64,000 nt of DNA from an uncultured Verrucomicrobiota bacterium (GTDB lineage Bacteria > Verrucomicrobiota > Kiritimatiellia > CAIQIC01 > Lenti-01). Below are positions 17,757 through 56,485 of this stretch, piece after piece (positions within the stretch are counted from its first letter, which is position 1; the number at the start of each line of letters is the position of its first letter). Position numbers and translations under genes: made by a program. The stretch is taken from NCBI GenBank assembly GCA_964647595.1, contig CAZYGH010000016.1, forward strand, positions 16,368 to 80,367, read 5' to 3'. A model generated the notes under the pieces. It was not told where the DNA came from. It saw only the letters and a list, made by a program, of their open reading frames with translations, and did no database searches.

Positions 17757-17828
17757 TTTTCCACAGTGTGGAAACATTTTTTCCATTGTGTGGAAAAAAC
17801 GCGAAAAAGTTTTCCATACTGTGGAAAC
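17757..17828. repeat. 72 bp element of three 19 bp palindromic units (TTTTCCA[CT]-N3-GTGGAAA[AC]), copy 1
   Basis: Units at 17757, 17779 and 17810. The reverse complement matches 56414-56485 at 65/72 nt. Confidence 0.9.
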
Positions 17829-18099
17829 TCTTGCAAAACTCCACAGAATACGGCCGGGATGGAACCCGGCCCTCCAGACAAGCGCCAACATGCACCGTCT
17901 TTTCCTCTGGAGGGACGACCTCCGCGTCGTCCGGGTTCGTCTTGAAAGTTCCCCTCGGATAGTTTGGACACAACCTTAAGGCCTTTTTTGATAATTTAGA
18001 AAAATATACCCCCTTTACAAATAGAAGGACAGGGTCTAGCGTTGACTCGCAGGATGGATGTGCAGGAGAGCGTGAATGGTCGAATCCGGACAACAGGGT

Positions 18100-19647
18100 A
18101 TGGCGCGACACACGGCCAGTTGGGCGGTGCGGCTCTGTGCGGGTTTCGCCCTGTGGATACTGGGGATTTCAACGGCTGTTGGACAAGATCCGCTCGATCT
18201 TTTTTCGCCCTCACCCGTCTCCCCTTCTGCACGTAAAACGACTGCCGCAACCGACACGCATCCGCTCGATATCCACTTTGAGGCGTTGCTTTCCGGTGCC
18301 GTTGTTTCCAACACGCTGATTCGGTGCGAGCCGGAACCCGGCATTTTTTTCACGGCCCGCGTCAGCCGCATCGAGACGGATGTCAACGGCACCCTCACGC
18401 TCTGGGCTCCGTTGGAGGGTCGCGAGTTCGCCCACTTTTCGTTGTCGGTGACCGAAAACCAAGCGCTGGGCGAAATTTTGTTGCCGGACGAGCAACGGCG
18501 TTATGTCATTCGCTTCGACGCCGCAAACAATCAAAACGTGGCGGGAACGTTGACGGATGAACAGGTCGATGAGCTTCCGTCCAGCCCCTCGATTGTGCCA
18601 CCCCTCCCCAGTCCCACTGTTTCCAACGCAAAAAAAACATCGCTACCCCTGTCGGATATCGCCAATGACGGCAACACCGTCATCGACCTGCTCATCGTGT
18701 ATACACCCGCCGCCGCCACGTGGGCGGGCGGCACGGCGGGCATCAACAACGTCATCGCCCAAGCCATGTCTCGTGCGCAAACGGCGATGGATAATTCCCA
18801 TATCGCCATCACGTTCCGTTTGGCTCATTCCACCCAAATTTCGTATACGGAAAGCGGCAGTTCCAACACCGATATCGATCGCCTGCAAAAAACCTCCGAC
18901 GGCCATATGGACAGTGTTCACACCTTGAGAAACCAGTACGGCGCCGACATTGTCACCCTCATGACCACCGCCAGCGACACCGGCGGGTTGGGCTATTTGC
19001 TGGACAGCACCAGCGGCATGCCCACCTATGCGTTCAATCTCACGCGTGTTCAACAATCTGCCACCAGCTATACGGTCATTCACGAAGTCGGTCACAACAT
19101 GGGCGCGCACCACCACAAAGCCCAAACGGTTCAGCCCGGCCCCGGCCTCTATAGCTATGCGGCGGGCTGGCGCTGGACCGGCACCAACGGCCTGCGCTAT
19201 TGCTCCGTGATGAGCTACGACAGCGGCACCTATTTTTCCGACGGCCTCACCCATACCCGCGTGGGCTATTTCTCCAACCCCAACGTGAATCATCAAGGCG
19301 TGAGTACCGGGGATGCAGCCAACGGCGACAACGCGCGCACTCTCAGCAATATCCGCGGCGTGGTTTCAGCCTACCGGGCCGCCGCCAGCCTGCCGTTTTG
19401 GTGCAGCGCCACTCCCCTGAACAATCAAATTCAGTTGCGCTGGGAAGATCCGCTGGAATGCGGTTTTTCCTCCAAGATCGTCCACATCCGAAGCGGTTCC
19501 ACCAATTATCCCGCCGCCACCAACCAAGGCACCTTTGTGTATCAGGGAACGGCCGATTCGTTCTTGCACACCAACCCGGTTTCCCGACAACCCAACTATT
19601 ACACCATTTGGCTTTCCAACGACGGCGCCACGTTCGTCGAACCTTGA
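18100..19647 (+). CDS. Secreted metzincin zinc metallopeptidase (reprolysin-like/M12B-M72 type) with conserved C-terminal domain
   Basis: HEVGHNMGAHH zinc motif, CSVMSY Met-turn, IDLLIVYTP and FSNP motifs. Signal peptide MARHTASW...ISTAVG (ATG 18100 preferred over 18076). Confidence 0.85.
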   Translation: MARHTASWAVRLCAGFALWILGISTAVGQDPLDLFSPSPVSPSARKTTAATDTHPLDIHFEALLSGAVVSNTLIRCEPEPGIFFTARVSRIETDVNGTLTLWAPLEGREFAHFSLSVTENQALGEILLPDEQRRYVIRFDAANNQNVAGTLTDEQVDELPSSPSIVPPLPSPTVSNAKKTSLPLSDIANDGNTVIDLLIVYTPAAATWAGGTAGINNVIAQAMSRAQTAMDNSHIAITFRLAHSTQISYTESGSSNTDIDRLQKTSDGHMDSVHTLRNQYGADIVTLMTTASDTGGLGYLLDSTSGMPTYAFNLTRVQQSATSYTVIHEVGHNMGAHHHKAQTVQPGPGLYSYAAGWRWTGTNGLRYCSVMSYDSGTYFSDGLTHTRVGYFSNPNVNHQGVSTGDAANGDNARTLSNIRGVVSAYRAAASLPFWCSATPLNNQIQLRWEDPLECGFSSKIVHIRSGSTNYPAATNQGTFVYQGTADSFLHTNPVSRQPNYYTIWLSNDGATFVEP

Positions 19648-19659
19648 GAAGGAACCGAT

Positions 19660-20376
19660 ATGAAAAAATGGCTACAACTCGCGGCTCTACTCGGATGCTG
19701 GGCCCCGCTGGCCTCCCACGCCAACGATGCCGGCGATCTGGTGTTCCCCACCGATTTCACGGATTACGTCCGCTGGGAAGTTCGCTACGAGAATCTGCAC
19801 CGCGACATCAAGGTCACCTCCGAATCGCCGCGCGCCGATGACCGGCTGAATGCCGACGTCCTGGCGCTGAAAGCCAACCTCGGCTGGATTCCCAATGTGC
19901 GGCTCGATTTCGAAGTGGGCGGCATGCAAACCGACAGCGGAAGTCCCGCGCTACTGGGCGGCGCCGGCTTGCGCTATCTGGCCTTCGATCATGGCCCGTG
20001 GCGCGTGGGCGGTTTCGGACAGTTGCAATATGTGGCCAATCTGTCCGACAAACAAGATTTGGTCGGCGTGGGCAACGTGGATGTGGATTACAATCTGTTA
20101 GGAGTGGATATCGGGGCGCTGGCCTCCTATCGGTTCCGGGTGGCCGATCAATTTGCCGTGGTTCCCTATGCGGGGCCCCTCCTCTCGCTCATGCGAATGA
20201 GCGGCGATATTCAGGAGTCGGCCCGATCCGGCGAAAGTTATGAAGCCAAGGAAAGCCAGTTCTTTGGCGCGGCCGTCGGTGTTAGTTTGGAATCCGAAGG
20301 GGTCAATGGCATTCGGCTGGAAATGCGCCTGTTCGATGCGGTGAGCATTTCTCTTGCGGCAGCCTACGTGTTTTAA
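19660..20376 (+). CDS. Putative outer-membrane beta-barrel protein
   Basis: Signal peptide MKKWLQLAALLGCWAPLASHA, amphipathic alternating strands, C-terminal ...SLAAAYVF (terminal Phe). Confidence 0.7.
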   Translation: MKKWLQLAALLGCWAPLASHANDAGDLVFPTDFTDYVRWEVRYENLHRDIKVTSESPRADDRLNADVLALKANLGWIPNVRLDFEVGGMQTDSGSPALLGGAGLRYLAFDHGPWRVGGFGQLQYVANLSDKQDLVGVGNVDVDYNLLGVDIGALASYRFRVADQFAVVPYAGPLLSLMRMSGDIQESARSGESYEAKESQFFGAAVGVSLESEGVNGIRLEMRLFDAVSISLAAAYVF

Positions 20377-20403
20377 GTTGGCCGATACGGAAAGGAGCAT
20401 CTC

Positions 20404-21117
20404 ATGGAAGTGGCTGGAACCATCAATCTATTTCGTAACATGAAGGAAACGATCGAGTTTTCTCCCATCGCCGTCGAGCAGCAAGGCCGCGAAGCCTCCC
20501 CCGACAAGACCAGCCGAACAGCGGAAGCAGACGCTTCTCGCGAGGACACGTTCACGCTCTCCGATCGCGGGCGCGCCGTCGCCGAACTCGAACAACCCGG
20601 TGCCGTCCAAAACGAACAGGCCAGCGTCGAAAAAGAACAGGACAACCGCGAGACCGAGGAAAAAGAGAAGGAAAAGCAGGAGACCCAAGACGGCGAAGAG
20701 AAGCCCCGCGCCGAGTCCAGCACCCAAGTCACTCCAGAAGAACAACAGGTCGTGGACGAATTGCGCAGCACGGATCAAAAAGTGCGCACCCACGAGCAGG
20801 CCCATGCCGCAGCGGGCGGCCACAACGTGCGCTACGAATACGAAACCGGCCCCGATGGTCGCCAATATGCGGTGGCAGGAACCACCGATATTGATATTTA
20901 CGCCGCCGGAAATGACCCCGATGGCAAAATGGCGCAAGCCCAGAAAATGCGTTCTGCCGCGCTGGCTCCGGCCGATCCGTCCGGCCAAGATTTAGCCGTC
21001 GCCGCCAAGGCCACGCGCCTCGAAATGGATGCCCGCCGCGAAAAAGCCGATGCCGAGCTCGAAGAAATGGTGAGCGCCTCCTCCTCCCAAACCAAGCAAC
21101 TGATCTACGACTTCTAA
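20404..21117 (+). CDS. SprA-related family protein (putative HExxH metalloprotein)
   Basis: Acidic low-complexity N-half, then D.KVRTHEQAHAAAGG...YEYETGPDGRQYAVAG...ALAPADPSGQDLAVAA, the family signature. Confidence 0.8.
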   Translation: MEVAGTINLFRNMKETIEFSPIAVEQQGREASPDKTSRTAEADASREDTFTLSDRGRAVAELEQPGAVQNEQASVEKEQDNRETEEKEKEKQETQDGEEKPRAESSTQVTPEEQQVVDELRSTDQKVRTHEQAHAAAGGHNVRYEYETGPDGRQYAVAGTTDIDIYAAGNDPDGKMAQAQKMRSAALAPADPSGQDLAVAAKATRLEMDARREKADAELEEMVSASSSQTKQLIYDF

Positions 21118-21149
21118 CCATTGGCCGTTGGAATGGATCCCAGTTGAAC

Positions 21150-22272
21150 TTACTGAACCGCTTCGCCGCGATTCTGCTTCAGCCAGGCCTCAATAAAGAG
21201 ATCCAAGTCCCCGTCTAACACCGCATCTGCCTGCCCCGTCTCCGCCTCGGTTCGATGATCCTTCACCATCGTGTATGGCTGCAACACATAGGAGCGAATC
21301 TGGTGTCCCCACGCAATCTCGCCTTTGTCGCCATAAAACTGTTCCATCTCGCGGCGCTTTTTGTCCTGCTCCAACTCGTAAATCTTCGCGCGCAGAATTT
21401 TCATCGCCTTGTTGCGGTTCGATCCTTGGCTACGTTCCGCCTGGCAGGCCACCACAATGCCCGTCGGTAAATGGGTCAATCGAATCGCGCTATCCGTCTT
21501 GTTGACGTGCTGCCCCCCCGCCCCGCCCGACCGATATGTATCCACCCTCAAATCTTTTTCGTCAATCTCCACCACGATGTCGTCGCTGATTTCCGCCACC
21601 ACATCCAGCGAAGCAAACGACGTATGCCGCCGCTTGGCCGAATCGAACGGGCTAATGCGGACCAGCCGATGCACGCCCCGCTCCGCCTTCAAAAAACCAT
21701 ACGCCCATGGACCGCTCACCATCAGCGTCACGCTCTTCACCCCCGCCTCATCGCCGGGCTGAAAGTCCACCGTCGACACCGTAAAACCGTGTTGCAAACA
21801 ATAGCGGTCATACATCCGCAATAGCATCGCCGCCCAATCGCACGACTCCGTCCCCCCCGCGCCCGCATGCAAGGTCAAAAACGCATTATTCGCATCAAAA
21901 CGCCCGATCATCAGCGATTGCAGTTCCACCTGCGCATATTGCGCTTCCAGTTTTTTTAACTGCTTATCCAGATCCAGTACATCCGGATGGTCCTCGGCCA
22001 CGTGCCCCTCCGCCTCCAAGAGGCCAGCCATCAACTCCAGCTCCTCCTGCCCCGCCACGAGTTTCTCGTACGGCCCCGTCACCGCCTCCAACCCGTTCTT
22101 CTTCTCGATCAACGCGCGCGCCGCTGCCGCATCGTTCCAAAAGTCCGGCGTCGACATCTGCTGCGTCAGTTCCTCAATCGTTTTCTTTTTGCCAACAACG
22201 TCAAAGATAACCTCTCATTCCTGCGAGGTGTTCTTTCAGGGTCGCCAATCGCGATGAAAGCTCGTCCAACAT
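21150..22272 (-). CDS. prfB: Peptide chain release factor 2, expressed via +1 programmed frameshift
   Basis: ATG 22272 gives MLDELSSRLATLKEHLAGMRGYL, then CTT TGA C, and the +1 frame continues DVVGKKK...MSTPDFW. SPF anticodon-mimic and GGQ motifs are present. Confidence 0.95.
22200..22215 (-). promoter_or_regulatory. RF2 autoregulatory +1 frameshift site with internal SD-like sequence
   Basis: Minus strand reads AGA GGT TAT CTT TGA C (compare E. coli AGG GGG TAT CTT TGA C). Confidence 0.93.
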
Positions 22273-22284
22273 ATTTCCTTTTCT

Positions 22285-22360
22285 GAGGTTCAGAGGTTCA
22301 CGGTTCAGGGTTCACGGTTTCCCGTCAATTCCCATCCTGCAAATCCTGTTCATCCTGTCA
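22285..22360. repeat. Two short tandem arrays between lnt and prfB (GGTTCA x4 at 7-8 bp spacing; ATCCTG x3 at 9 bp spacing)
   Basis: gaggttca gaggttca cggttca gggttca cggtt at 22285-22319; ATCCTG at 22334, 22343 and 22352. Confidence 0.7.
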
Positions 22361-23893
22361 AAAAACTCTCTGCTTCTTTCGTTTCCACATCGCCGTCGCC
22401 AGCCACAATATCGTAGCCACCGCACAAGCGATGCCATACATATCCCCGAAACGGGTGTAGAACGTCAAGGACATCCCATCCGACGGCACGGCCACATCCG
22501 CCCACAACACCCCGGGTCCCGCCGTTTGCCCTTTTTCATCCGACAACACGGACGCCACCCGTCCCGAAGGCTCAATCACGCACGTCACCCCCGTGTTGGC
22601 CGCCCGCACCAGCGGCACGCGGTTTTCCACGGCCCGCAACACCGCATTGCGCATATGTTGCCTCGGGGCCATCACGTCATCAAACCATGCATCATTCGTC
22701 ACATTCACCAACATCCGCGCCCCATCCCGCACATCCGCCCGCGCCAGAGCCGGCAAAATGTCCTCAAAACAAATCAACGGTGACAGCGGAATCCGCCCCT
22801 TGCCCGCCCGGAATACAGCGCCCTCTTTTCCCGACGAAATGCTCACCGGCATTCCCATCGCCAACCGCCAACTCCACGGAATCCAGCTCTCCATCGGGAT
22901 AAACTCACCAAATGCCACCAGATGCCGCTTGTCATACTCCCCCACCATGCGCCCCTCTTCATCAAACAAAAAGGCGCTGTTGAAGTAGTTGGGCTCACCC
23001 GAATCGAGCGTCGCCAAATCCAACGACCCCGTCAGAATCTGCGTTCCATTGGTGCACAAATTCCAAACCAACGAATAGCTCAGCTCGCTATTGCGCACCT
23101 CGTCTGGCAGCGCCGTCTCCGGCCAAATCACAACCTCCACCCTCGGATCGGCCTGCGCCTGAAGCGTCAGTTCCTTCAATCGGGCATAAATCATTTTGAT
23201 TTTGGCCGTGACCCACTTTTCATCCTGCGGAATCGCCGTCTGCACCAGCGCCACCCGAATCGAACGTTTCGGCGTTTCCAGCCGCTCCACCCGCCATGCC
23301 CCCCAGCCCAGCACCGCCACAACCGTCACGCCACAAAGCGCCCAAGCTCGCCACTCCCGCCGCTCCACCACCGCCCACACCACGACCCCGTTCACAAACA
23401 CCGCCAACCCCGACACCAACCAAACCCCTCCCACTTCCGCCAATTGGATCGCCGGCAACCACGGTGTCAGCCCCACCCCCAGTAAATTCCACGGAAATCC
23501 GCCACCAATCCATCCTCGTAAAAACTCGCCCCCGCACCACACCACCGCCAGCGAACCCGCAAACCCCGCCGCCCCCCCTCTCCAGCGATTTGCGACCCAA
23601 ATCGTCGGCAGCACAAAAAGCGCACAATACGCACTCATGAACACCCAGCCCAACACCGTCACATGCGTCAACCATCGGATGCTCAACAGCCAAAACAGAA
23701 ACCCCGACACCCACCCCATCCTCATCGCCATCCGGAACGACACGCGCCTCGCCATCCCCAACACCGGCACGAGCGCCACACCCGTTGCCCACGCCCACTC
23801 CAACGGTGAAAATACCGCAAACAAAAGAAACCCCGACACCACGGCACAAGCCGCCGCCAGCCATTCTTCTCGATTGGAAGCCGTCATCTTCAT
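22358..23893 (-). CDS. lnt: Apolipoprotein N-acyltransferase (start 23893 or 23923; the ORF track extends to 23992)
   Basis: GGFPWNLLG, IWPETA (catalytic E), YDKRHLVAFGEFIP (K), LICFED (C), NVTNDAWF, RAVENR, RAANTGVT. Confidence 0.93.
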   Translation of the reverse strand: MKMTASNREEWLAAACAVVSGFLLFAVFSPLEWAWATGVALVPVLGMARRVSFRMAMRMGWVSGFLFWLLSIRWLTHVTVLGWVFMSAYCALFVLPTIWVANRWRGGAAGFAGSLAVVWCGGEFLRGWIGGGFPWNLLGVGLTPWLPAIQLAEVGGVWLVSGLAVFVNGVVVWAVVERREWRAWALCGVTVVAVLGWGAWRVERLETPKRSIRVALVQTAIPQDEKWVTAKIKMIYARLKELTLQAQADPRVEVVIWPETALPDEVRNSELSYSLVWNLCTNGTQILTGSLDLATLDSGEPNYFNSAFLFDEEGRMVGEYDKRHLVAFGEFIPMESWIPWSWRLAMGMPVSISSGKEGAVFRAGKGRIPLSPLICFEDILPALARADVRDGARMLVNVTNDAWFDDVMAPRQHMRNAVLRAVENRVPLVRAANTGVTCVIEPSGRVASVLSDEKGQTAGPGVLWADVAVPSDGMSLTFYTRFGDMYGIACAVATILWLATAMWKRKKQRVF

Positions 23894-24018
23894 TGGCCGG
23901 GCATTCTGCCACACCCTTCCCATCCCGCAACCCTCGATTTCTGCCCATACCACCCCCCGGGCTACTTCATCTGCAATAGCCCCGATCAACAATGATACGA
24001 CTTATGGCAAAGAGCCGT

Positions 24019-24285
24019 CTAGATTCCAGCACCGCCCTCGAAAACGCCCGACAGTTCGTGCAACGTGGCATCTTCGTCCGGCCCCTCTGCGGTAACATTC
24101 AAAAAGGTCCCCTTGACCGCACCCAACGTCAGCAACTGCAAAATGGAATTGGCATTCGCAATGGGACACCCTTCGCACGTCACCCGCACGTCCGAGCGGT
24201 GCTGTTGCACGGTCTTCACGATTTCGGCCGCCACCCGCAGGTGAACACCGCCTTCGTTTTGGACAACCCATTGGCTTGTTTTCAT
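24019..24285 (-). CDS. ptsH: HPr family phosphocarrier protein
   Basis: From MKTSQW (24285): His15 in GGVHLRVAA, regulatory Ser in NANSILQLLTLG, and AEGPDE. Contains an unusual CEGC. Confidence 0.85.
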   Translation of the reverse strand: MKTSQWVVQNEGGVHLRVAAEIVKTVQQHRSDVRVTCEGCPIANANSILQLLTLGAVKGTFLNVTAEGPDEDATLHELSGVFEGGAGI

Positions 24286-24355
24286 GTTTTCATTTGCTTT
24301 TTGAGGGCAGGCACGACATCCCGACATTCGAGATGCCGTGCCGACTGTGTGGGAC

Positions 24356-25648: not shown

Positions 25649-25770
25649 TCTAATTTCTCCTGTTGGCGTGTATTGTTAAACGGTTGGTGAATGGAATGCG
25701 ACAATAAGCAATAAGGCCAAATGCCTTTGGGGCGGCGCAGGCCATTGGCATCCAGTGTAGGGCGTTGCCC

Positions 25771-25827: not shown

Positions 25828-25875
25828 GTTCTACGTTATTCTCGTTTTATCCAGTTAATCTAGCGAATGAGTAGA

Positions 25876-47116: not shown

Positions 47117-50100
47117 TCAGGCCTCTTCGCGGCGCTGCACTCGGATGTCCAAAGCCAAGCTTTGAATTTCCTTCATCAGCACGTTGAATGATTCCGGCAC
47201 TCCCGCTTCCAAGGAATTCGTTCCCTTGACAATCGACTCATAGATGCGGGTGCGGCCGGCCACATCGTCGCTCTTCACCGTGAGCAACTCTTGCAACGCA
47301 TACGCGCAACCATAGGCCTCCATGGCCCACACTTCCATTTCGCCGAAACGCTGTCCGCCATACTGCGCCTTACCACCCAGCGGCTGCTGGGTCACAAGAC
47401 TGTAGGGACCAACGGCACGAGCATGAATCTTGTCGCTCACCAAGTGGTGGAGCTTGAGCATGTAAATCACACCCACCACCACCCGCTGGTCAAACGGATC
47501 ACCCGTCCGCCCATCGTAGAGAATTGTCTTTCCATCATCCGGCAGATTGGCCTTCTTCATCATCTCCCAGATCTTGGATTCAGGGCATCCATCAAATACA
47601 GGACTGGCCGCATGAAGACCCAACACCTTACAGGCGATACCCAAATGCGTCTCGAGCAACTGTCCCACATTCATACGGGAAGGCACACCCAACGGATTCA
47701 GGACAATGTCCACCGGCGTTCCATCCGGCATGAAGGGCATGTCTTCCTCAGGAAGAACACGCGCCACCACACCTTTGTTTCCGTGACGTCCGGACATCTT
47801 GTCACCCACGCTCAGCTTCTTCTTGCTGGCAATGTAGACCTTGACCTGCTTGATGATGCCCGTCTCGGCTTCTTCTCCGCTCTCCAGGCGCAAGGCCATG
47901 TTTTCGCGGTCGTCCTTCAACTGAGCAAACTTCGAACTGTATTCGCCAATAATGTTGCTGATCTTCTGCTGAATCGGACTCGGATCGATGGCAATCACGT
48001 CATAAGCCGCCGCCAACTTGCGAAGGAGCGTCTTGGTGATCTTGCGGTTGGCGGGAATGATGATCTCACCCGTTTCGCCGTTGACCACATCCAACGGAAT
48101 CTTTTCGCCCAACAAGATGTTCGACAACGCATCAGTCAGATTCTCGGTGATTTCCGACTCGCGCTTATCAAACTCCTCCAGCATCTGCTTCTGCTGTTTG
48201 CGACGTTCATTCGCGCTCATCTTCGTGCGCTGAGGCAAATCACGGGACGTGGTCTTCACATCCATCACGATTCCGTAAGTTCCGCTCGGAACCGTCAGGG
48301 AGGTGTCGCGCACTTCTGCGGCCTTCTCGCCGAAAATCGCACGCAACAACTTCTCTTCCGGGGCCAACTCGGTCTCGCTCTTGGGCGTGATCTTGCCCAC
48401 CAGAATATCGCCAGGCTTCACTTCAGCGCCGATTCGGACCACACCGTCCATTCCGAGGTTCTTCAGGGCTTCTTCGCCCACGTTCGGAATGTCACGCGTG
48501 ATTTCTTCAGGACCCAGCTTGGTGTCGCGCGCACCGCACTCGAATTCTTCGACATGCACGGAAGTGAACACATCCTCCGATACGAGGCGCTCATTGAGCA
48601 AGATCGCATCTTCGAAGTTGTATCCACACCACGGCATGAACGCCGCCAGCACGTTGCGACCCAGGGCCAACTCGCCGCCATCGGTCAGCGGACCATCGGC
48701 CAACACATCGCCCTTCTTAATCTTCTGACCCTTTTTGACGATGGGACGCTGATTAATACAAGTGCCTGCATTCGAACGAGTGAACTTGCGAAGCTCGTAG
48801 GACTGATACTCTTCCTGGGGCGTCTTCTTGGTTGGCACAACGCCATCCTTCGAGATGACAATCTTGTCCGCCGACACATAGGCCACCTTGCCCGCTTCTC
48901 GAGCAATGCTCATCACGCGGCTATCTCGAGCCACACGGGCCTCAACACCCGTCGCCACGTAGGGGGCTTCCGCACGCAACAATGGAACGGCCTGACGCTG
49001 CATATTCGCACCCATCAAGGCGCGGTTAGCATCATCGTGCTCCAAGAACGGAATCAAACCGGCCGCCACGGAAACGACCTGCTTCGGCGACACATCCATG
49101 TAGTTGGCCCGACTGGCTTCTACTTCGAGAAACTCACCGCGCCAGCGTGCCGCTACCGTCTCGCGTTCAAACGAACCGTCCGCGTTCAGCGGCGCATTGG
49201 CCTGCGCGATCACGTAGTTCTCTTCCTGATCTGCCGTCAAATAATCGATGACCGTCGAAGAAACCTTCCCGTCCACCACTCGGCGATAGGGCGTCTCAAT
49301 GAAGCCAAACTCATTCACACGCGCAAACATCGAAAGCGACGAGATCAGACCGATGTTTGGACCTTCCGGCGTCTCAATCGGGCAGATGCGCCCATAGTGA
49401 GACGAATGCACGTCGCGAACTTCAAAGCCCGCACGCTCACGGCTCAACCCTCCGGGACCGAGCGCGCTCAAGCGCCGCTTGTGCGTCAACTCCGCCAGAG
49501 GATTCGTCTGGTCCATGAACTGCGACAACTGGCTACGACCAAAGAAATCGCGAATCACCGCTGCCAACGCCTTGGGGTTGATCAACTTTTGCGGCGTGAG
49601 TTTCTCCGCCTGCTGATCGAACACCGTCATGCGTTCGCGCACGAGGCGCTCCGTGCGGGCCAAACCCACGCGACATTGATTTTCAACCAGTTCGCCCACC
49701 GTACGGATACGGCGACTGCCCAGATGGTCAATATCGTCGATCGTCCCCTCGCCCTTCCGCAGATTGATCAAATACTTGACCGCCGCAACAAAGTCTTCTT
49801 TTTCCAGCACCCGGCTCTCGTTCTTCGCATCGAGGCCCAACTTCTGCTGGATTTTATAGCGACCCACGCGGCCCAAATCATAGCGACGAGGATCAAAAAA
49901 TATGCGCTTCAACAACTGGCGGGCATTCGACGTGGTCGGAGGATCACCCGGACGCAATTTGTGATAGATATCCTTCAGCGCATCATCCGCGCTGGCGGAG
50001 GAATCCTTGCGAACGCTCTTCAGCAAGAGACCCGCATCCCACGTCACATTTACAACCTCCAAGGAGGCAATACCGGCAGCCTGCAACTGCTTGAGCAAAT

Positions 50101-50866
50101 CCTTTGTCACCGGCTCAAACTTCTTGACCAGAATGGTCTGGCTGTCCGCATCCACCACGTCGGCTTTCACCACGCGATTTTCAAGTTGCTCGGCCTTGAC
50201 CTTCGCCACGTCGATCGTCTCGAACGTGTAAAACAATCCCAGCAACTCGTCATCCGTTCCGTAGCCCAAGGCGCGGAGGAAAGTCGTCGCCAAAAATTTC
50301 CGGCGGCGTTTTTTGCGGTCTAAATAAATATTCAGCAAATCCGAGGTGTCAAACTGGACTTCCACCCACGATCCACGATCTGGAATGATCCGGAACGAAT
50401 GCAACAGCGTGCCGTTCGCATGAACCGACTGCTCAAAGCAAATGCCGGGCGAACGGTGCAACTGACTGACAATGACGCGCTCGGCACCATTGACAATGAA
50501 CGTGCCCTGCTCTGTGATCAGGGGAACTTCACCCATGAACACGGTCTCTTCACGCACTTCAGCCTGATTTTTCAGGCGAAACGTCACATGCAAAGCCGCC
50601 GTATGCGACTCGCCTTCCTTCAAACTTTCAAAGGCCGATTGCTTAGGCGGCGTAATTTCGTACTTCACGAAATCCAAGGTGCAATTTCCATCGTAGCTTT
50701 CGATGGGAAACACTTCTTTGAAAACCGCTTGCAGACCCACGGCGCGGCGCTTCATGGGCGCGGCCTCCATCTGCAAAAAATCGCGATACGAGCGGGTTTG
50801 GATCTCAATCAGATCCGGGAGCTCGATCACATCGGACAACTGGCCAAAATTGATTCTCTCAACCAT
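47117..50866 (-). CDS. rpoB: RNA polymerase beta subunit
   Basis: [45 protein letters not shown] 50866 with an AGGTG RBS (GTG 50875 is an alternative). Confidence 0.99.
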
Positions 50867-50974
50867 CCGGGTCACCTATCGTTCAAGGGTGGAAAACCGC
50901 ATAAACCAAAAGACAGGCACACCCCGAGCGCGCTAGAAGCGCCCCGGGGCGGCCGTCACACGACATGTAGGGGA

Positions 50975-51370
50975 CTACTTGATGGTGACTTTTGCACCAG
51001 CAGCCTCAAGCTGCTTCTTGATCTTCTCAGCTTCGTCCTTGGCCACGTTCTCCTTGACTGCCTTCGGAGCGCCTTCGACCAAGTCCTTGGCTTCCTTCAG
51101 CCCCAGGCCCGTGATCGCGCGGACTTCCTTGATGACCGCAATCTTCTGCGCGCCAGCTTCCGTCAATTCCACCGTGAATTCCGTCTTCTCTTCCGCCGCA
51201 GCCGCGCCGCCAGCAACCGGGGCCGCCGCCGCCGCCACAGGAGCCGCCGCAGAAACACCCAAACGGGTTTCCAACGCCTTCACCAACTGCGAAAGTTCCA
51301 GAACCGAAATCGTCTCGATCCAGTCCACAAATTCCGCCATCTTGCCTTCGAGTTTCACTTCATCTGTCAT
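50975..51370 (-). CDS. rplL: 50S ribosomal protein L7/L12
   Basis: EEKTEFTV.L...[25 protein letters not shown]. Confidence 0.98.
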
Positions 51371-51432
51371 GGGTTTGATCTCCTGATCCTTGTTTTTTTA
51401 AATTCGTGATTGTTCTTGGTTTCGCCCTGTGC

Positions 51433-51951
51433 CTAGGCAGCACTCTTCTTGTCTGCGGCAGCCTTCAGCACATACACCAGGCTCGCCAGTTTTTGGCTCA
51501 TCACGCCAACCAAATTCGACATCGGGGCCGCGATCGTCCCGACCAACATGCCTTGCAACACCTTCTTCGGCGGCATCGTCGCCAAGGCTTCCACATTCGC
51601 AACCGACAACACCGCACCATCCATGTGGCCCAGCTTGACGGCCGGAATCTTGTTGGCCTTGGTGAACTCGCGAAGCGCTTTCGCCGTCGCCGCCACATCG
51701 CCCGATCCAAACACCAAAGCCGTTGGTCCCTTCAGTCCAGCCTCGATTCCCGTATAGCCCAACTCCTTCGCCACCACACGGAACAAGCGGTTTGGCACCA
51801 CTTGGAACCGTGCTTCGGTCTCCCGCAGCTTGCGCCGCAAGGAAGCCGTCAGGGTCGTATTCATCTTCGTGAAATCCGTCAGAATCACATACGTCGACGA
51901 CGACAGTTGATCCTTGATTTCCCTAACAATCGCCTCTTTTTCCGGTCTCAT
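51433..51951 (-). CDS. rplJ: 50S ribosomal protein L10
   Basis: MRPEKEAIV...LRRKLRE...NRL...GPTALVF; lies between rplA and rplL. Confidence 0.95.
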   Translation of the reverse strand: MRPEKEAIVREIKDQLSSSTYVILTDFTKMNTTLTASLRRKLRETEARFQVVPNRLFRVVAKELGYTGIEAGLKGPTALVFGSGDVAATAKALREFTKANKIPAVKLGHMDGAVLSVANVEALATMPPKKVLQGMLVGTIAAPMSNLVGVMSQKLASLVYVLKAAADKKSAA

Positions 51952-51978
51952 TGTCTTGTCTCCAATCCTTGGGGGGGC

Positions 51979-52671
51979 CTACGCCGTCTCGCGGGGATCC
52001 AGGCGGAGCCCAGGACCCATGGTCGAGGTAATTGTCGCACGGCGAATGAACAAGCCCTTTGTTGCCGCAGGTCGCGCTGCATTCAAGCCATCAATCACCG
52101 CTTTGCAGTTGCCTTGCAACGCCGCCACTTCGAACGACATCTTGCCAAACGGCACCATGACGTTCCCATTGCGATCCATACGAAATTCCACTCGGCCCGC
52201 CTTACAGGCCTTTACCGCCGCCGCCGTGTCTTCGCTGACGGTGCCGGTCTTCGGGTTGGGCATCAAACCACGAGGTCCGAGTACCTTACCCAATTTGCGC
52301 ACTTCCTTCATCGCGTCCGGCGTGGCCACCGCCACATCGAAATCGGTGAATCCACCCGATACCTTCGCAATCATGTCTTCATAGCCCACTAAATCTGCGC
52401 CAGCCGCACGAGCCGCATCGGCCGCAGGACCATTCGCAAACACGAGCACCCGTACCGTCTTACCGGTGCCATTTGGCAACGTCACCGTGCCGCGGACAGC
52501 CTGATCGCTCTTTGTCGGATCCACACCTAGACGGAAGGCAATCTCTGCCGTTGCGTCAAACTTGGTTGTCGGATTGTCCTTCAGGAACCGGATTGCCCCC
52601 TCCATCGTATAGAGAGTTTCCTTGTCCACCTTGGACGCCGCCTTCGTATATTTTTTACCGTGAAATGCCAT
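51979..52671 (-). CDS. rplA: 50S ribosomal protein L1
   Basis: KFDATAEI..RLGVDP..SDQAVRG, LGPRGLMPNPKTGTV. Confidence 0.98.
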   Translation of the reverse strand: MAFHGKKYTKAASKVDKETLYTMEGAIRFLKDNPTTKFDATAEIAFRLGVDPTKSDQAVRGTVTLPNGTGKTVRVLVFANGPAADAARAAGADLVGYEDMIAKVSGGFTDFDVAVATPDAMKEVRKLGKVLGPRGLMPNPKTGTVSEDTAAAVKACKAGRVEFRMDRNGNVMVPFGKMSFEVAALQGNCKAVIDGLNAARPAATKGLFIRRATITSTMGPGLRLDPRETA

Positions 52672-52680
52672 GGCTACGCC

Positions 52681-53103
52681 TTACTCCACTTCGATTCCCA
52701 TGCTTCTCGCTGTGCCCGCCACCATGCGCACCGCATGGTCCTCGTCGCTCGCATTCATGTCCTTCGCCTTCAATTTGACGATCTCCATCAACTGCTTGCG
52801 CGTCACTTTGCCAACCTTGTCGCGGTTCGGCACACCCGACCCCTTGGCAATTCCCGCCGCCTTTTTCAGGAGCGAGGAAGCCGGAGGGCTCTTGGTGATG
52901 AAAGTAAAGCTCTTGTCTTGATAGACCGTGATCACCACAGGGATGACCATTCCAGCTTCCTTCTGTGTCGCCGCATTGAATTCCTTGCAGAACGCCATGA
53001 TATTGACGCCCTGCTGACCCAACGCTGGCCCCACCGGAGGCGCAGGATTCGCCTGTCCCGCCGGGATCTGTAGTTTTACTATGCCTGTAACTTTTTTCGC
53101 CAT
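52681..53103 (-). CDS. rplK: 50S ribosomal protein L11
   Basis: [29 protein letters not shown]. Confidence 0.98.
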
Positions 53104-53119
53104 AAATTTCCACCCGGGC

Positions 53120-53671
53120 CTATTCGCCCCTTTCCACCTGCCAATATTCCAATTCCACTGGTGCCGGACGCCCGAAAATCGAGACCGACACCTTCAGTTT
53201 CCCGCGTTCCGGGTCCACTTCCTCCACCAAACCGCTCAGACTCAAGAACGGACCGTCTGTAATCTTAACCGATTCGCCCGGCTCAAAGACCACTTTGGGC
53301 TTCACCCGATCTTTCTTCTCTTCGATCTGCTGCAGAATCTTTTCCACTTCATCCGGGCGCAACGCCACAGGACGATCGCCGCCAATGAATCCAATCAACC
53401 CCGGCGTCGCTTGGATGAAGGTCCACGGCTTTTCCATGAGTTGCTTCGCCTCATCATACAAGGCCATTTCGATGAGCACATATCCCGGAAAAAACTTCCG
53501 CGTCAGCGTGGTACGCTTACCTTGCTTGACCTCAGAAACCTTTTCTGTCGGGATGAGCACCTCTCCAATATACTCCTGCATCTCTTCGATCTGGACGCGC
53601 TTGGAGAGATTCTCCTTCACTTTCCCCTCTTGACCCGAGAGGGCGTGCAATACATACCACTTTTTATCCAT
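53120..53671 (-). CDS. nusG: Transcription termination/antitermination factor NusG
   Basis: [25 protein letters not shown] motif [23 protein letters not shown]. Confidence 0.97.
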
Positions 53672-53693
53672 GACGCCGGTTTCTCCCCCTGCC

Positions 53694-53894
53694 TTAAATC
53701 ACCAGCCGGATCAGCTCACGCAGCACGACATCGCAAACCGCCACGAAACCGCCCAACAATCCAACGGAAATGATCACCACCACCGTTGAATCGAACAGTT
53801 CCGGACGCGTCGGCCAAGCACACTTTTTCAGCTCGGCGTTCACCTCGCTGAAGAATGCGCGAATTCCTCCGATGCTCTCTGCAATCTTGCTCAT
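53694..53894 (-). CDS. secE: Preprotein translocase subunit SecE
   Basis: FFSEVNAELKKCAWP plus one TM helix; lies between tRNA-Trp and nusG. Confidence 0.92.
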   Translation of the reverse strand: MSKIAESIGGIRAFFSEVNAELKKCAWPTRPELFDSTVVVIISVGLLGGFVAVCDVVLRELIRLVI

Positions 53895-53948
53895 ATCTCT
53901 GCTCGCCTTTTCGTATCCAGGTTTCTAGCCGCCACTCCCCATTGGGAT

Positions 53949-54025
53949 TGGCAGGCCAGGAGGGACTTGAACCCCCAACAACCGGTTTTGGAGACCGGTG
54001 CTCTGCCAAATTGAGCTACTGGCCT
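53949..54025 (-). tRNA. trnW: tRNA-Trp (CCA)
   Basis: AGGCCAGTAGCTCAATTTGGCAGAGCACCGGTCTCCAAAACCGG...GTTCAAGTCCCTCCTGGCCTGCCA; cloverleaf with encoded CCA. Confidence 0.97.
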
Positions 54026-54059
54026 GTGGGCTACTTGCCGTAAACGGTCGTCCGTCTGC

Positions 54060-54212
54060 CTACTTCACTTCGCGGTGCACGGTGTGCTTCCGCTCAGACG
54101 GACAATACTTCTTCAACTCAAGACGCTCCGTCTTGGTCTTTTTGTTCCGGCTGTTGACATAGTTGCGGCGCTTGCACTCCGTGCAGGCCAATGTGATGTT
54201 TTCTCTGGGCAT
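54060..54212 (-). CDS. rpmG: 50S ribosomal protein L33 (50 aa, below the ORF-track cutoff)
   Basis: Manual translation: [50 protein letters not shown]. Confidence 0.96.
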
Positions 54213-54287
54213 AATTCAAAACTCCAGATGCGGGGGTCTTGAGGCGGACTCGTTTCCGGCCCGCCTCACGACCTTCCCGGAATCTCT

Positions 54288-55496
54288 TTATTCCACAATT
54301 TCCGACACCACGCCGGCGCCGACCGTGCGGCCGCCTTCGCGGATGGCGAAACGCATGTTCTTCTCCATGGCGATCGGGGTAATCAATTCAACATCCATGT
54401 CGATGTTGTCGCCCGGCATCACCATTTCCACGCCTTCTGGCAACGTCACGTCGCCGGTCACATCCGTGGTGCGGAAGTAGAACTGCGGACGATATCCCTT
54501 GAAGAACGGCGTGTGGCGACCACCTTCTTCCTTGCTCAACACATACACGCTCACCTTGAACTTCTTGTGAGGCTTGATCGAGCCGGGCTTGGCCATGACC
54601 TGACCGCGCTCCACATCTTCTTTCTTCAGACCGCGAAGCAACGCACCGATGTTGTCGCCCGCTTGACCTTGATCCAGCAACTTGCGGAACATTTCCACGC
54701 CCGTCACCGTCGTCTTGATCGTGTCGCGCAACCCAACGATTTCAATTTCTTCGCCGACCTTGATGATTCCGCGCTCCACGCGACCGGTCACCACTGTTCC
54801 ACGACCTTCGATCGAGAACACGTCTTCGATCGGCATCAGGAAAGGCTGGTCCAATGGACGCAACGGCTCTGGAACAAATGTGTCAATAGCATCCATCAGC
54901 TCTTGGATGCACTTGGAATCGGGACCATTGGGATCCTTCGAGGCGATCGCCTTGATGGCGCTACCGCGAATGATCGGAGTCGTGTCGCCGGGAAAATCGT
55001 ACTTCGTAAGCAACTCGCGGATTTCCATCTCGACGAGATCCAACAGTTCCGGATCATCCACCGTGTCAACCTTGTTCAGGAACACCACAATCGCGGGCAC
55101 ACCCACTTGGCGGGCCAGCAGGATGTGTTCACGGGTCTGGGGCATCGGACCATCGGAAGCACTCACCACCAAAATGGCGCCGTCCATCTGCGCAGCACCG
55201 GTGATCATGTTCTTGATGTAATCCGCATGACCGGGGCAATCCACGTGAGCATAGTGACGGTTGGCCGTCTGGTATTCCACGTGCGAAGTCGCGATCGTCA
55301 AGATTTTGGTCTTGTCGCGGCGACCCTGCGACTCAGAGGCCTTGGCCACCTGATCGTAGCTGATGTAGTTCGCCAAGCCCTTCAAGCTCTGCGTATAGGT
55401 AATCGCTGCCGTCAGCGTCGTTTTGCCATGGTCCACGTGGCCGATTGTGCCGACGTTCACATGGGCTTTTGTCCGTTCGAATTTATCCTTAGCCAT
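54288..55496 (-). CDS. tuf: Elongation factor Tu
   Basis: [21 protein letters not shown]. Carries the insertion [20 protein letters not shown]. Confidence 0.99.
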
Positions 55497-55578
55497 GGAT
55501 TGTCTCCCTAGGTTATTTCTTTTTTAAATTCTTGGCACCGCTTCCGGTGCTCGTTTCTTTCCACACTCAAATTTGATT

Positions 55579-55654
55579 TGGAGCCTGCGAGCGGGATTGA
55601 ACCGCTGACCTCGTCCTTACCAAGGACGTGCTCTGCCAACTGAGCTACACAGGC
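55579..55654 (-). tRNA. trnT: tRNA-Thr (GGT)
   Basis: GCCTGTGTAGCTCAGTTGGCAGAGCACGTCCTTGGTAAGGACGAGGTCAGCGGTTCAATCCCGCTCGCAGGCTCCA. Confidence 0.97.
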
Positions 55655-55819
55655 ACGTTGCGCTCCAATTTCCCGCTGTCCATCGACAACACGGGCACAA
55701 GACATAACGAAACCGAACCTAGGGATTCCCGGAGAGGCTCGGAAAGCGCTAAATCTTGTGTCTGACCGCTATTTTCCCCACTTGAAACCATTTACCGACG
55801 GATTCAAATGTTGCGCCGC

Positions 55820-55847
55820 ATCATACCTGCGCCGAACCCCATGTCAA
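55820..55847 (-). promoter_or_regulatory. Sigma70-type promoter for the tRNA-Thr-tuf operon
   Basis: TTGACA-16 nt-TATGAT on the minus strand, with an AT-rich upstream tract. Confidence 0.7.
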
Positions 55848-55932
55848 CTTTTTTTGAAAAATATTTTGGTGCCGCCAACATTCTTTCAAAAATGACTGAT
55901 AATCCGAACATCCCTCTTTCTTCGTTCACCCT

Positions 55933-56274
55933 TTACTTCGCGTGAACTTTGAACTTTCCTGGACCTTGGTTGCTGATCCGAAATCCCGTCACGTTGCGAT
56001 TGGAGCCCAAATCAATGTCCTGCTTCTCACCCTTGTTAAAACGACGCGCTACGCGAATCTCCGTTTTGGCCGCACCTTCACGAATCCACAAGGTGTTGAT
56101 CAACACAGAACCATCGGTACACTCAATTTCCACTGTGCGGATATAGCGATTCACGGCCAATTCGGTTGCGTCTGCTTTCGATCCCGCCACAACCTCGGCT
56201 ACGGTTCCCCACTCCGCAAACGCGACCGTCCCGCACCACACCGTCAAAACCAATGCCAACAGAAACTTCTTCAT
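55933..56274 (-). CDS. Small secreted hypothetical beta-rich protein (possibly DUF2541/YaaI-like)
   Basis: MKKFLLALVLTVWCGTVAFA signal peptide. IRTVEIEC..GSV.IN...IDLGSNRNVTGFRI resembles DUF2541 (weak recall). Confidence 0.7.
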   Translation of the reverse strand: MKKFLLALVLTVWCGTVAFAEWGTVAEVVAGSKADATELAVNRYIRTVEIECTDGSVLINTLWIREGAAKTEIRVARRFNKGEKQDIDLGSNRNVTGFRISNQGPGKFKVHAK

Positions 56275-56381
56275 CCTTTTCTCCAGTTTGTGTTCAGACC
56301 CAAAGTCCAATTCGTGCGTACCTCTACCACAAGCCACGCCCCCACGCAAATCCTTCTTGCGCGCCGCCCCACCCCCTTAAA

Positions 56382-56407
56382 CTATCACAATTAATTAACT
56401 GTGATAG
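56382..56407. promoter_or_regulatory. 26 bp near-perfect AT-rich palindrome CTATCACAATTAATTAACTGTGATAG
   Basis: One mismatched pair; lies 6 bp from the second triple-palindrome copy. Confidence 0.55.
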
Positions 56408-56413
56408 CTCACG

Positions 56414-56485
56414 TTTTCCACGCAATGGAAAAATGTTTCGCGATTTTTCCACACAATGGAAAAAATGTTTCCACACTGTGGAAAA
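56414..56485. repeat. 72 bp triple-palindrome element, copy 2 (inverted relative to copy 1)
   Basis: Units at 56414, 56445 and 56467. 65/72 identical to the reverse complement of 17757-17828; the last 42 nt are identical. Confidence 0.9.

Follow-up and report, generated by a model that had tools for sequence, protein, structure and literature searches.

A dispersed repeat family of phased 19-bp palindromes in Kiritimatiellia-type bacteria

Palindromic repeats and phased binding sites in bacteria

Enterobacterial REP elements are bound by the host proteins IHF and gyrase. The repeat described here, found twice in the window (the whole stretch of 64,000 nucleotides that was analysed), resembles REP, BIME and REPIN elements in its short palindromic units, high copy number, mostly intergenic position, clustering in arrays and lineage specificity, as well as in its occasional in-frame intragenic copies and the G·T-type asymmetry of one strand. 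REP/BIME/REPIN elements, however, are GTAG- and CGTC-tagged and RAYT-associated, whereas our module has neither tag, its arms are AT-rich and its hairpins weak. Furthermore, REPINs are inverted doublets with variable spacers, whereas the units of the module have the same polarity at fixed distances of 22 and 31 bp; unlike REPs, the module does not prefer gene 3′ ends, no RAYT lies within the window, and its arrays persist at orthologous sites, their spacing conserved. GTAG REPs occur intragenically in Opitutus terrae (PMC3733652, PMC3116915). Rickettsia palindromic elements (RPEs), which are longer and CGTC-tagged (PMC3733652), are also inserted in frame in coding genes and tolerated there as extra peptide segments; unlike the module, they are not found in phased arrays, and the two share no sequence similarity.

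The module has palindromic dimer sites two or three whole helical turns apart on one face of the DNA, a cooperative-binding geometry that it shares with NrdR, ARG and Lrp arrays. NrdR boxes are two palindromes 31-32 bp apart, ARG boxes are two 18-bp palindromes 21 bp apart, and the sites of Lrp/FFRP arrays are about 3 turns apart. A genome has few such sites, placed in promoters that belong to a defined regulon and conserved upstream of orthologous genes, whereas the module is present on at least hundreds of contigs, in any context, with no regulon and a different motif. Noc-binding sites, parS (ParB family), DUS/USS and HIP1 are chromosome-wide marks, near-invariant short palindromes scattered along the chromosome and also within genes, with a specificity that co-varies with lineage. 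The module half-site, TTTCC(A)C, resembles those of parS (TTTCAC) and of Noc-binding sites (TTTCCC); the 3-bp central insert in the module palindrome makes a ParB/Noc geometry unlikely, and ParB/Noc, DUS/USS and HIP1 marks are single sites, unlike the 22/31-bp arrays. The phased-palindrome family has apparently not been described earlier in the searchable literature.

Two copies of a many-copy family

Copy A (17757-17828, + strand) and copy B (56414-56485, inverted) are 65/72 identical, as the sequence-only reading had reported, and its further observations are borne out: three 19-bp palindromes in each copy, two perfect TTWTNCACA matches in each, and a position in divergent intergenic regions with the same end at similar distances from the starts of a CDF and an EEP gene (Table 1). 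The palindromes, here P1 to P3, have centres 22 and 31 bp apart, and P1 is at the end that faces these two genes. The homology reaches 5 nt beyond the P1 side (AACAG; in copy B, P1 is followed by its reverse complement, CTGTT), making the copies 70/77 identical. All six matches to TTTCCAY-N3-RTGGAAA in the window fall within copies A and B; dinucleotide shuffles of the window gave a mean of 0.07 matches and reached six in 0/100.

Table 1. Coordinates of the two module copies and of the features around them
Feature	Position	Strand	Details
CDF cation-efflux gene	16739..17674	-	Pfam Cation_efflux + ZT_dimer; 83 bp from copy A P1 end
Copy A module	17752..17828	+	AACAG, P1 17757-17775, ATT, P2 17779-17797, 12-nt spacer, P3 17810-17828
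Copy A 12-nt spacer, P2 to P3			AACGCGAAAAAG
Unrelated high-copy short repeat, same gap as copy A	17896..17959	.	GC-rich hairpin GGACGAC-CTCCGC-GTCGTCC 17913-17932
Secreted M12B/reprolysin-like metalloprotease gene	18076..19647	+	Pfam Reprolysin_3/4/5; 248 bp from copy A P3 end
Small exported 113-aa protein gene	55933..56274	-	Copy B P3 side; without Pfam family
26-bp palindrome CTATCACAATTAATTAACTGTGATAG	56382..56407	.	6 bp from copy B P3
Copy B module, inverted	56414..56490	-	P3 56414-56432, spacer, P2 56445-56463, AAT, P1 56467-56485
EEP-proximal blocks CTTTTGGCTGGCCTC ... TTTTGCGCCATAAGGAAC	56526..56567	+	Between module and EEP start codon
EEP (endonuclease/exonuclease/phosphatase) family gene	56573..57637	+	Pfam Exo_endo_phos; 88 bp from copy B P1 end

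Copies A and B almost certainly belong to one many-copy dispersed repeat family, found throughout Kiritimatiellia-type (Verrucomicrobiota) bacteria. In a metagenome run resembling the source of the window (X1), 183 contigs match the module at copy A and 172 at copy B, with homology stopping at 17752-17756 and 17827 and at 56413/56414 and 56485-56487, respectively, and an unrelated wastewater run holds a further 135. In these metagenome contigs homology breaks off exactly at the module ends and the flanks differ. The doublet pattern occurs at no fewer than 111 loci in ~30 Verrucomicrobiota/Kiritimatiellia MAGs, a 31-mer from the window itself is present in 34 metagenome contigs, and one short-read contig ends within the module; copies from other species match the module at 92-97% identity. 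The density of arrays in the window is low (2 per 64 kb). The proposal that the copies are a REP/MITE-like repeat is supported in essentials by this high-copy dispersed family with sharp ends, although the features that define REP and MITE membership were not found.

The family unit is the 19-bp palindrome TTTTCCA-YRSYR-TGGAAAA, and the common 72-bp module consists of P1, a 3-nt linker, P2, a 12-nt spacer (family consensus AtCGCGAAAAat) and P3. Successive palindromes are spaced, centre to centre, by 22 bp (97 cases) or 30-32 bp (105), with a few at 41-43 bp and none at other distances within the allowed range of 20-47. Since 22 and 31 bp correspond to ~2 and 3 helical turns, all sites lie on one DNA face. 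The most frequent array pattern is '= 22 > 31 >', 45 of 52 triples have one polarity and 2 the reverse, and T..G pairs are consistently on one strand of the module. In each arm, variation is confined to the inner bases, the outer seven being invariant, as expected of a dimeric protein site; lineage variants occur in L114 (TTTTCCG..CGGAAAA) and, at an orthologous site, in L161 (TTTTACGT..ACGTAAAA). The module is open in all six frames and can therefore be tolerated within genes. Indeed, arrays are sometimes in frame within genes; examples from relatives are an amidohydrolase gene and an ABC permease gene.

Arrays occupy tandem (44), divergent (17) and convergent (14) gaps in proportion to availability (baseline 274/66/71), and have a gene start beside them 90 times and a gene end 85 times, with no relation of module orientation to the neighbouring genes; these positional statistics come from a crude in-house gene caller and from loci ascertained by the palindrome pattern itself. 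Isolated triples in related genomes turn the P1 side toward a gene start 11 times and toward a gene end 9 times, showing no orientation preference, and at n=2 the shared orientation and similar gene distance of copies A and B are no more than chance. The 111 array-flanking proteins fall into 139 Pfam families with no common theme. The family is thus one of many copies with sharp ends, indifferent to gene starts, gene ends and orientation. A regulatory role had been among the proposals of the sequence-only reading, with the proviso that many copies free of positional or orientation bias would speak against it; the related genomes hold many copies and show no bias, and by that standard the regulatory reading falls.

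Arrays are kept at orthologous sites across species while their spacers drift. The gap upstream of pheS holds arrays of 3-8 palindromes in five species (flanking genes 70-88% identical), in which spacer sequences differ and the 22/31-bp spacing is preserved, and an amidohydrolase gene carries an in-frame array at the identical codon position in two species. Copy B, in turn, is an addition, specific to its lineage, to a promoter region that is otherwise conserved, because the orthologous gap upstream of EEP has no array in four relatives with the same EF-Tu/EEP synteny and the EEP-proximal blocks downstream of copy B are conserved. The EEP orthologues of the syntenic relatives are 65-82% identical, and two of them have arrays downstream. 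Among the CDF orthologues (61-74% identity), an upstream array of different form is present in one and a downstream array in another, and two have none; no conserved array arrangement was found at these genes.

Proposed docking sites and competing explanations

On balance, we think that the family is probably a REP-like dispersed repeat of helically phased docking sites for a putative dimeric DNA-binding protein. We infer the binder of the arrays; an abundant dimeric protein of this kind would dock cooperatively, which would allow arrays to persist, and the arrays would be marks spread across the chromosome, or architectural sites, and not gene switches. New copies would arise when whole modules are copied to new sites, arrays may grow or shrink by gain or loss of 31-bp units, and the CDF and EEP genes would be affected only incidentally, if at all. 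Copies A and B are neither a dedicated switch for their two neighbouring genes nor a DnaA site. The operator array suggested by the sequence-only reading survives in its generic form, phased docking sites for a dimeric protein that are independent of these genes, which is the mechanism favoured here; its gene-specific form does not, given syntenic EEP promoters without an array, no conserved CDF arrangement and 139 Pfam families.

A possible but unlikely alternative is a miniature mobile element of REP/REPIN or MITE type that is purely selfish, has no host function and is mobilised in trans by a transposase whose gene lies elsewhere (RAYT/IS200-type, on single-stranded hairpins). It would account for the high copy number, sharp ends and unrelated flanks, for the lineage-specific occurrence at the EEP promoter, for the fixed polarity (45:2) with G·T-compatible pairs on one strand, and for module-level identity, spacers included, within and between genomes. 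Indeed, the 65/72 identity in the window, spacers included, and the 92-97% cross-species identity fit recent mobile copying at least as well as binding-site selection. The six open frames would make such an element tolerable in genes, and intragenic REPs are known in a verrucomicrobium, Opitutus terrae (PMC3733652). However, the module has no GTAG/CGTC tag, no target-site duplication and no terminal inverted repeats beyond its palindromes, arrays are not biased to gene 3′ ends, and same-polarity units at fixed 22/31 bp are not inverted REPIN doublets. Furthermore, deeply diverged species keep arrays at orthologous sites, with spacing held and spacers drifting, and a transposase was found neither in the window nor among the top 25 families listed for the 111 flanking proteins.

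A strand-specific hairpin would be consistent, too, with the fixed polarity and the T..G pairs on one strand, and the module might act as RNA or single-stranded DNA, through hairpins in a 5′ or 3′ UTR or in the form of a small RNA, and so influence the stability or translation of mRNA. As single-stranded DNA, the entire module folds at -18 to -21 kcal/mol (z -3.7 to -5.8), the T..G strand weakly tends to be the sense strand (33:19, p = 0.07), and one metatranscriptome contig carries P2-P3. Nevertheless, we regard such a role as improbable, as lone hairpins are weak (-4 to -5 kcal/mol), the conservation is of sequence and not of pairing, with invariant arms and no compensatory arm changes within the family, and arrays lie in divergent and convergent gaps in both orientations. 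An Rfam search gave no family at threshold, and the placement of A-runs and T-runs is unsuited to an intrinsic terminator.

Arms that are letter-perfect both within and between genes, with lineage-specific variants in L114 and L161, could also mark a genome tag that resembles an uptake sequence or is driven by conversion, spreading through bias in DNA uptake or in gene conversion, but strict helical phasing and a polar module grammar are unexpected of uptake sequences and two arrays per 64 kb is a low density; we consider this very unlikely.

The suggestion of a DnaA titration site, in which arrays titrate or reactivate the replication initiator (datA/DARS-like), is not borne out and has little probability left. 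TTTTCCACA matches TTWTNCACA, giving the two perfect boxes of each copy, and is the DnaA box of a cyanobacterium (PMC4674748), and sites in the hundreds would make a large sink. Across the family, however, the consensus is matched by just 32% of half-sites; box positions 1-7 (TTTTCCA) are invariant, and conservation is lowest at positions 8/9 (C 0.65, A 0.48). Palindromic pairing with 22/31-bp phasing is without counterpart in DnaA-box clusters, copies are dispersed, some within genes, and the GC skew of the window is uniform, with no switch.

A gene-specific operator array, through which a dimeric regulator would co-regulate the CDF exporter, EEP and their divergent partners, is the least probable reading, for although each copy is placed in a divergent promoter region, turns the same end to a start codon 83/88 bp away and has its palindromes phased on one helix face, syntenic EEP orthologues have no upstream array (two have downstream arrays instead), CDF orthologues differ, the flanking genes are unrelated in function, the family has no orientation or position bias, and the module is on >170 contigs of one metagenome.

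Other features of the two gaps

The EEP-proximal blocks, the sole stretch of the gap that is kept in an alignment of all five species, are likely to be the true promoter or leader of EEP, as judged from this conservation. The EEP gene has 167 homologues, the closest of which are 354 aa long; orthologues of this length support the ATG at 56573, and a 113-119-aa counterpart of the small exported protein gene adjoins EEP in all relatives compared.

The 26-bp palindrome beside copy B is a further repeat module, present next to the triple in some cases. Its setting recurs in L034 and L053 (CTATCACTTATAATTATAAGTGATAG, 5-7 bp from P3), a degenerate copy is present in the orthologous L158 gap, and in X1 it reaches a summed contig depth, which is not a copy number, of 325-420 versus 5.6 in its flanks. 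The unrelated short repeat in the copy A gap occurs once in the window, and its summed contig depth is ~1000 in X1 and ~150 in X3, with flanks at 7 and 0.

Geometry of the 72-bp module

The sequence-only reading had described a 72-bp element present twice in the window in inverted orientation, and this description holds. Copies A and B are identical at 65 of 72 positions, each contains three 19-bp palindromes (P1, P2 and P3) with centres 22 and 31 bp apart, and each includes two perfect matches to the DnaA-box consensus TTWTNCACA. The homology continues for 5 further bases (AACAG) on the P1 side and then ends. Gene and domain calls place both copies in divergent gene gaps, with the P1 end 83 bp from the CDF cation-efflux gene and 88 bp from the endonuclease/exonuclease/phosphatase (EEP) gene, the distances originally claimed. 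The pattern TTTCCAY-N3-RTGGAAA matches six times in the window, against 0.07 expected, and all six matches fall within the two copies. The module has a G+C content of 36% compared with 57% for the window, whose genes are all of housekeeping type (rpoBC, ribosomal proteins, EF-Tu, glycolysis, murein synthesis, metY/cysK), and none of the module's six frames contains a stop codon.

Positions of the copies, neighbouring genes and related features (window numbering unless a locus is named)
Feature	Position	Strand	Remark
Copy A	17757-17828	+	72-bp module
Copy B	56414-56485	inverted	72-bp module
CDF transporter gene	16739-17674	-	one side of copy A
M12B-like metalloprotease gene	18076-19647	+	other side of copy A
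113-aa exported protein gene	55933-56274	-	one side of copy B
EEP-family gene	56573-57637	+	other side of copy B
GC hairpin	17852-17871		between copy A and the metalloprotease gene
GC-rich repeat	17896-17959		hairpin at 17913-17932
26-bp palindrome	56382-56407; L034:4153-4178; L053:1453-1478		beside triples
26-bp palindrome, degenerate copy	L158 about 2400-2425		orthologous EEP gap of a relative
In-frame arrays	L011:4921-5013; L087:5019-5059; L013:4386-4457		amidohydrolase (two species) and ABC-transporter permease
TTTTCCG-type palindrome	L114/L115:2385-2403		upstream of a CDF orthologue
TTTTCCAC-type triple	L160:3613-3683		EEP-PAP2 gap
TTTTACGT-type doublet	L161:3604-3660 (= L162:11102-11158)		same synteny as L160
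Large serine recombinase gene	L142:253-2112	-	digester metagenome island

Across the family, the centres of successive palindromes are spaced by 22 bp (97 cases), by 30-32 bp (105 cases) or occasionally by 41-43 bp, equivalent to two, three and four turns of the helix, and no other spacing occurs within the 20-47 bp range searched. The commonest array has the form seen in the window, a symmetric P1 (CCAC..GTGG) followed after 22 bp by P2 and after a further 31 bp by P3, both of the latter being CCAT..GTGG. Among 52 arrays of three palindromes (triples), drawn from at least 25 assemblies, the polarity of the units is alike in 45 and reversed in 2. The 12-nt spacer has the consensus AtCGCGAAAAat, with 0.5-0.9 per column compared with 0.4 in the flanks. 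Longer arrays contain extra 31-bp units in the same polarity, or consist of modules linked via a 30-bp step. The geometry is fixed and the arms are conserved as sequence; the shared grammar, polarity and spacer consensus therefore establish the 72-bp unit as a real element rather than three independent sites.

A promoter scan found no sigma-70-like site overlapping either copy. An Rfam search with the module returned only sub-threshold look-alikes of miRNA hairpins, owing to its self-complementarity. "Terminator-like" scan matches on both copies were rejected, as they consist merely of P1 followed by the T-run of P2.

A dispersed, multi-copy family

The two-palindrome pattern (any gap of 3-30 bp) occurs at no fewer than 111 loci of the public genome collection, nearly all in MAGs labelled Verrucomicrobiota, Kiritimatiellia or "Lentisphaerae"; the window's own contig is not among the 111 matches listed. 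The P1-P2 31-mer of the window is matched exactly in 34 metagenome contigs, none of them from the window's own sample. In X1, a source-like metagenome run that contains 99% of the region's words, 183 contigs align to copy A and 172 to copy B with at least 90% likeness, and the summed contig depth, 6-8 in the flanks, climbs to about 5400-5650 over P1-P2, values that include other organisms and are not copy numbers. The edges of homology in this run are sharp (17752-17756 and 17827 for copy A; 56413 and 56485-87 for copy B), and the flanks outside them differ. Furthermore, an unrelated wastewater DNA run in which the flanks are absent has 135 module-bearing contigs, and whole modules are 92-97% identical between species. 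The module is a copied unit, and two arrays per 64 kb suggest a copy number of tens to a few hundred per genome. Arrays also disrupt short-read assemblies; one short-read contig with an identical CDF gene terminates within the module. Phage and plasmid searches gave no match to the module and an IMG/VR scan found only 2 contigs with it; as a rule, therefore, phages do not carry the element. A metatranscriptome run (X2) yielded one contig on the module and is uninformative on transcription.

Other repeats lie close to the arrays. For the sequence flanking copy A on the right, CTCTTGCAAAAC..., no second copy exists among the collected sequences or in the searched index. Beyond copy A is a perfect 7-bp GC hairpin, GGCCGGG-ATGGAA-CCCGGCC, which was listed as terminator-like on the - strand and has too few T bases in its tail. 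It is followed by a GC-rich repeat with the hairpin GGACGAC-CTCCGC-GTCGTCC, which occurs once in the window and on many contigs of two metagenome runs (summed depths of about 1000 and about 150), some of which place it immediately next to the module's P3 end; this may be a conventional REP-like repeat. A 26-bp palindrome (CTATCAC-N12-GTGATAG) adjoins copy B and triples at two other, unrelated loci, with 5-7 bp between it and the P3 end. It is multi-copy in X1 (summed depth 325-420 versus 5.6), and resembles either a second module within a composite repeat or an independent operator-like site whose half-site is TATCAC.

An island in digester metagenomes (L142 and 22 other contigs among L123-L153; also L019) contains two tRNA genes, a large serine recombinase gene, 1.9 kb of GC-rich DNA lacking recognisable genes and an array of 2-8 palindromes. 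The cargo beyond the array is variable and defence-like (TPR, MazG-like, Schlafen-type helicase with S24 peptidase), and a 100-370-bp segment recurs inverted 3-9 kb away. The palindrome array marks where the constant part gives way to the variable one.

REP-like repeats, operators and DnaA boxes

The proposal of a REP- or MITE-like repeat stands in part: the short palindromes, high copy number and dispersal agree with it, whereas the tag, the 3'-end bias, inverted doublets and target duplication are missing. The units can form stem-loops, although the hairpins are weak (-3.9 to -4.9 kcal/mol as single-stranded DNA). In REPs, one end of the unit bears an unpaired tetranucleotide, GTAG (or CGTC), and most copies lie 3' of genes, where the neighbouring ORFs are convergent or co-directional (PMC3733652). 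Neither copy contains GTAG, CTAC, CGTC or GACG, and the family consensus before P1 is only a weak "AG". The gene context of the arrays, obtained with a simple self-trained gene caller that reproduced sensible genes in the window, matches availability, with a tandem:divergent:convergent ratio of 44:17:14 versus 274:66:71 in all gaps, and the arrays adjoin 85 gene ends and 90 gene starts. Isolated triples point their P1 side toward a start 11 times and toward an end 9 times, and the polarity strand is sense 33 times and antisense 19 times (p = 0.07). In place of the inverted unit pairs of REPINs, the module keeps one polarity (45:2) and fixed 22/31-bp steps. MITEs have terminal inverted repeats and a target-site duplication; direct repeats are absent from the flanks of copies A and B and of 68 related triples. 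No RAYT/IS200-type transposase was found in the 64-kb window or among the 25 most frequent families listed for 111 array-flanking proteins, among which no transposase or DNA-binding family is prominent. REP/BIME/REPIN elements are the closest known kind. Apart from the GTAG REPs of Opitutus, the searchable literature yielded no account of such repeats in Kiritimatiellia or Verrucomicrobia, and the element belongs to an apparently undescribed form of dispersed palindromic repeats.

A gene-specific operator array, another proposal, is not supported. The geometry is similar to that of the NrdR, ArgR and Lrp operator arrays; unlike those, the palindrome family has no regulon. Genes flanking arrays share no coherent function (139 Pfam families among 111 proteins), the commonest family, pheS, being due to one orthologous locus in four species. 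The synteny around copy B (L33, EF-Tu, the 113-aa gene and EEP) is kept in five relatives with 65-87% protein identity, yet the EEP gap lacks an array in all four relatives with DNA (L158-L161) and measures 108-207 bp in relatives compared with 298 bp in the window. The closest of the four (82%) retains the degenerate 26-bp palindrome and, at the position of the module, a single decayed palindrome, GTTTCCACACCGGAAG. In this gap, conservation across all five species is confined to blocks at 56526-56567, which separate the module from the EEP start codon. In two relatives, triple arrays lie directly downstream of EEP instead. One of the two window sites is a lineage-specific gain, and comparison of filled and empty EEP gaps revealed no target-site duplication.

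The synteny around CDF is not conserved, and its orthologues vary: one is preceded at 15 bp by a six-palindrome array, one has a triple downstream, one has no array, and one has only the variant palindrome TTTTCCG-N5-CGGAAAA. Given this variation among EEP and CDF orthologues, the similarity of the 83- and 88-bp distances is best read as coincidence, and this evidence does not justify annotating CDF and EEP as co-regulated. Among close homologues of the 311-aa CDF protein encoded in the window, several (P0002, P0004-P0006, P0020, P0021) are about 500 aa in length, and in some the transporter is fused to a GNAT acetyltransferase domain.

The remaining proposal, a DnaA titration site, is not supported, as only 32% of 796 half-sites fit TTWTNCACA, the copies are dispersed over hundreds of contigs rather than gathered at one or a few loci near dnaA or a GC-skew switch, and GC skew is uniformly negative over the window. 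The last two bases of the DnaA-box consensus (positions 8 and 9) matter most; in the half-sites TTTTCCA is essentially invariant and these are the least conserved positions (C in 65% and A in 48%, respectively), so the key DnaA-box bases are the least constrained in the palindrome family. The uniform skew also places both copies in one replichore, and their inverted arrangement thus shows that orientation is not tied to replication direction. Some incidental DnaA binding is possible, since in a cyanobacterium TTTTCCACA serves as a genuine DnaA box (PMC4674748). Resembling operators and DnaA boxes, the arrays will cause errors in regulon and origin prediction for Kiritimatiellia.

Persistence, coding regions and possible mechanism

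Arrays persist at orthologous sites. In five species whose genes on either side share 70-88% identity, the gap upstream of pheS has arrays of between 3 and 8 palindromes; the arms remain intact and the 22/31-bp steps of whole helical turns are retained, while the spacers are unrelated. Coding DNA also tolerates arrays: two species share an in-frame array at one codon position of an amidohydrolase gene, four palindromes long in one species and two in the other, although the flanking coding sequence is only about 80% identical, and in an ABC permease gene an array separates the two domains. These arrays contribute 14-31 residues, e.g. FSTGWKKSFHRVEK. Across the family, 31-bp units appear to have been gained and lost. 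Intragenic insertion is likewise known for RPEs and for the REPs of Opitutus terrae. Arrays contain 144 stop trinucleotides compared with 254 ± 11 when spacers are shuffled in place, a comparison confounded by the relatedness of copies.

Being open in all six frames, arrays inflate ORF calls, and only 2 of 10 in-gene arrays were confirmed by domains on both sides. Many "inside ORF" calls (e.g. aconitase, IF-2B) were rejected as longest-ORF extensions through stop-free arrays. Such calling crosses arrays and over-extends N-termini at many loci (e.g. L043, where the aconitase ORF is lengthened by about 450 codons, and L055) and in window ORFs 17174-17962 and 56166-56573; stop-free arrays are likely a source of mis-annotated starts in these genomes.

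The palindrome family is large, precisely phased, spread across a bacterial class, tolerant of coding regions and persistent between species, a combination that differs from textbook REPs and regulons and points to either a DNA-binding factor or a copying mechanism not yet recognised. Presumably, each palindrome is bound by an abundant dimeric protein, and adjacent dimers would interact over two or three helical turns, an interaction that would explain why the spacing is held while the spacers drift. As to copying, we saw no target duplication or terminal repeat in the flanks of the copies, and no transposase in the window or among the families listed. A REP-like mobile mechanism may still be involved, given the sequence identity of modules between species and their fixed polarity. 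Docking sites and mobile repeats would be compatible by analogy with enterobacterial REPs, which are mobile and also bound by host proteins. A bolder and rather doubtful extension of the docking-site reading is a chromosome-wide marking system of Kiritimatiellia, in which a putative clade-specific oligomeric protein, its specificity co-evolving with the palindrome, docks on phased arrays at gene boundaries and, where needed, within genes; the arrays would be written and kept by a copying process other than classical transposition, and could mark borders between constant and variable DNA, the serine-recombinase island of the digester metagenomes being an example.

Possible "dialects" of the palindrome are TTTTCCAC, TTTTCCG and TTTTACGT. 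A single TTTTCCG-CGCCA-CGGAAAA lies about 100 bp upstream of a 68%-identical CDF orthologue (L114/L115), with both arms altered symmetrically relative to TTTTCCA..TGGAAAA. Where one relative (L160) has a TTTTCCAC-type triple, another with the same synteny (L161) has a different 19-bp palindrome, TTTTACGT-TCT-ACGTAAAA, present twice, 32 bp apart, with a spacer similar to that of L160; the palindrome may have been "rewritten" in place. This is one locus only, with no further TTTTACGT doublets in 21 kb of the L161 genome. At L054, one TTTTACGT-type palindrome stands in phase beside a normal doublet.
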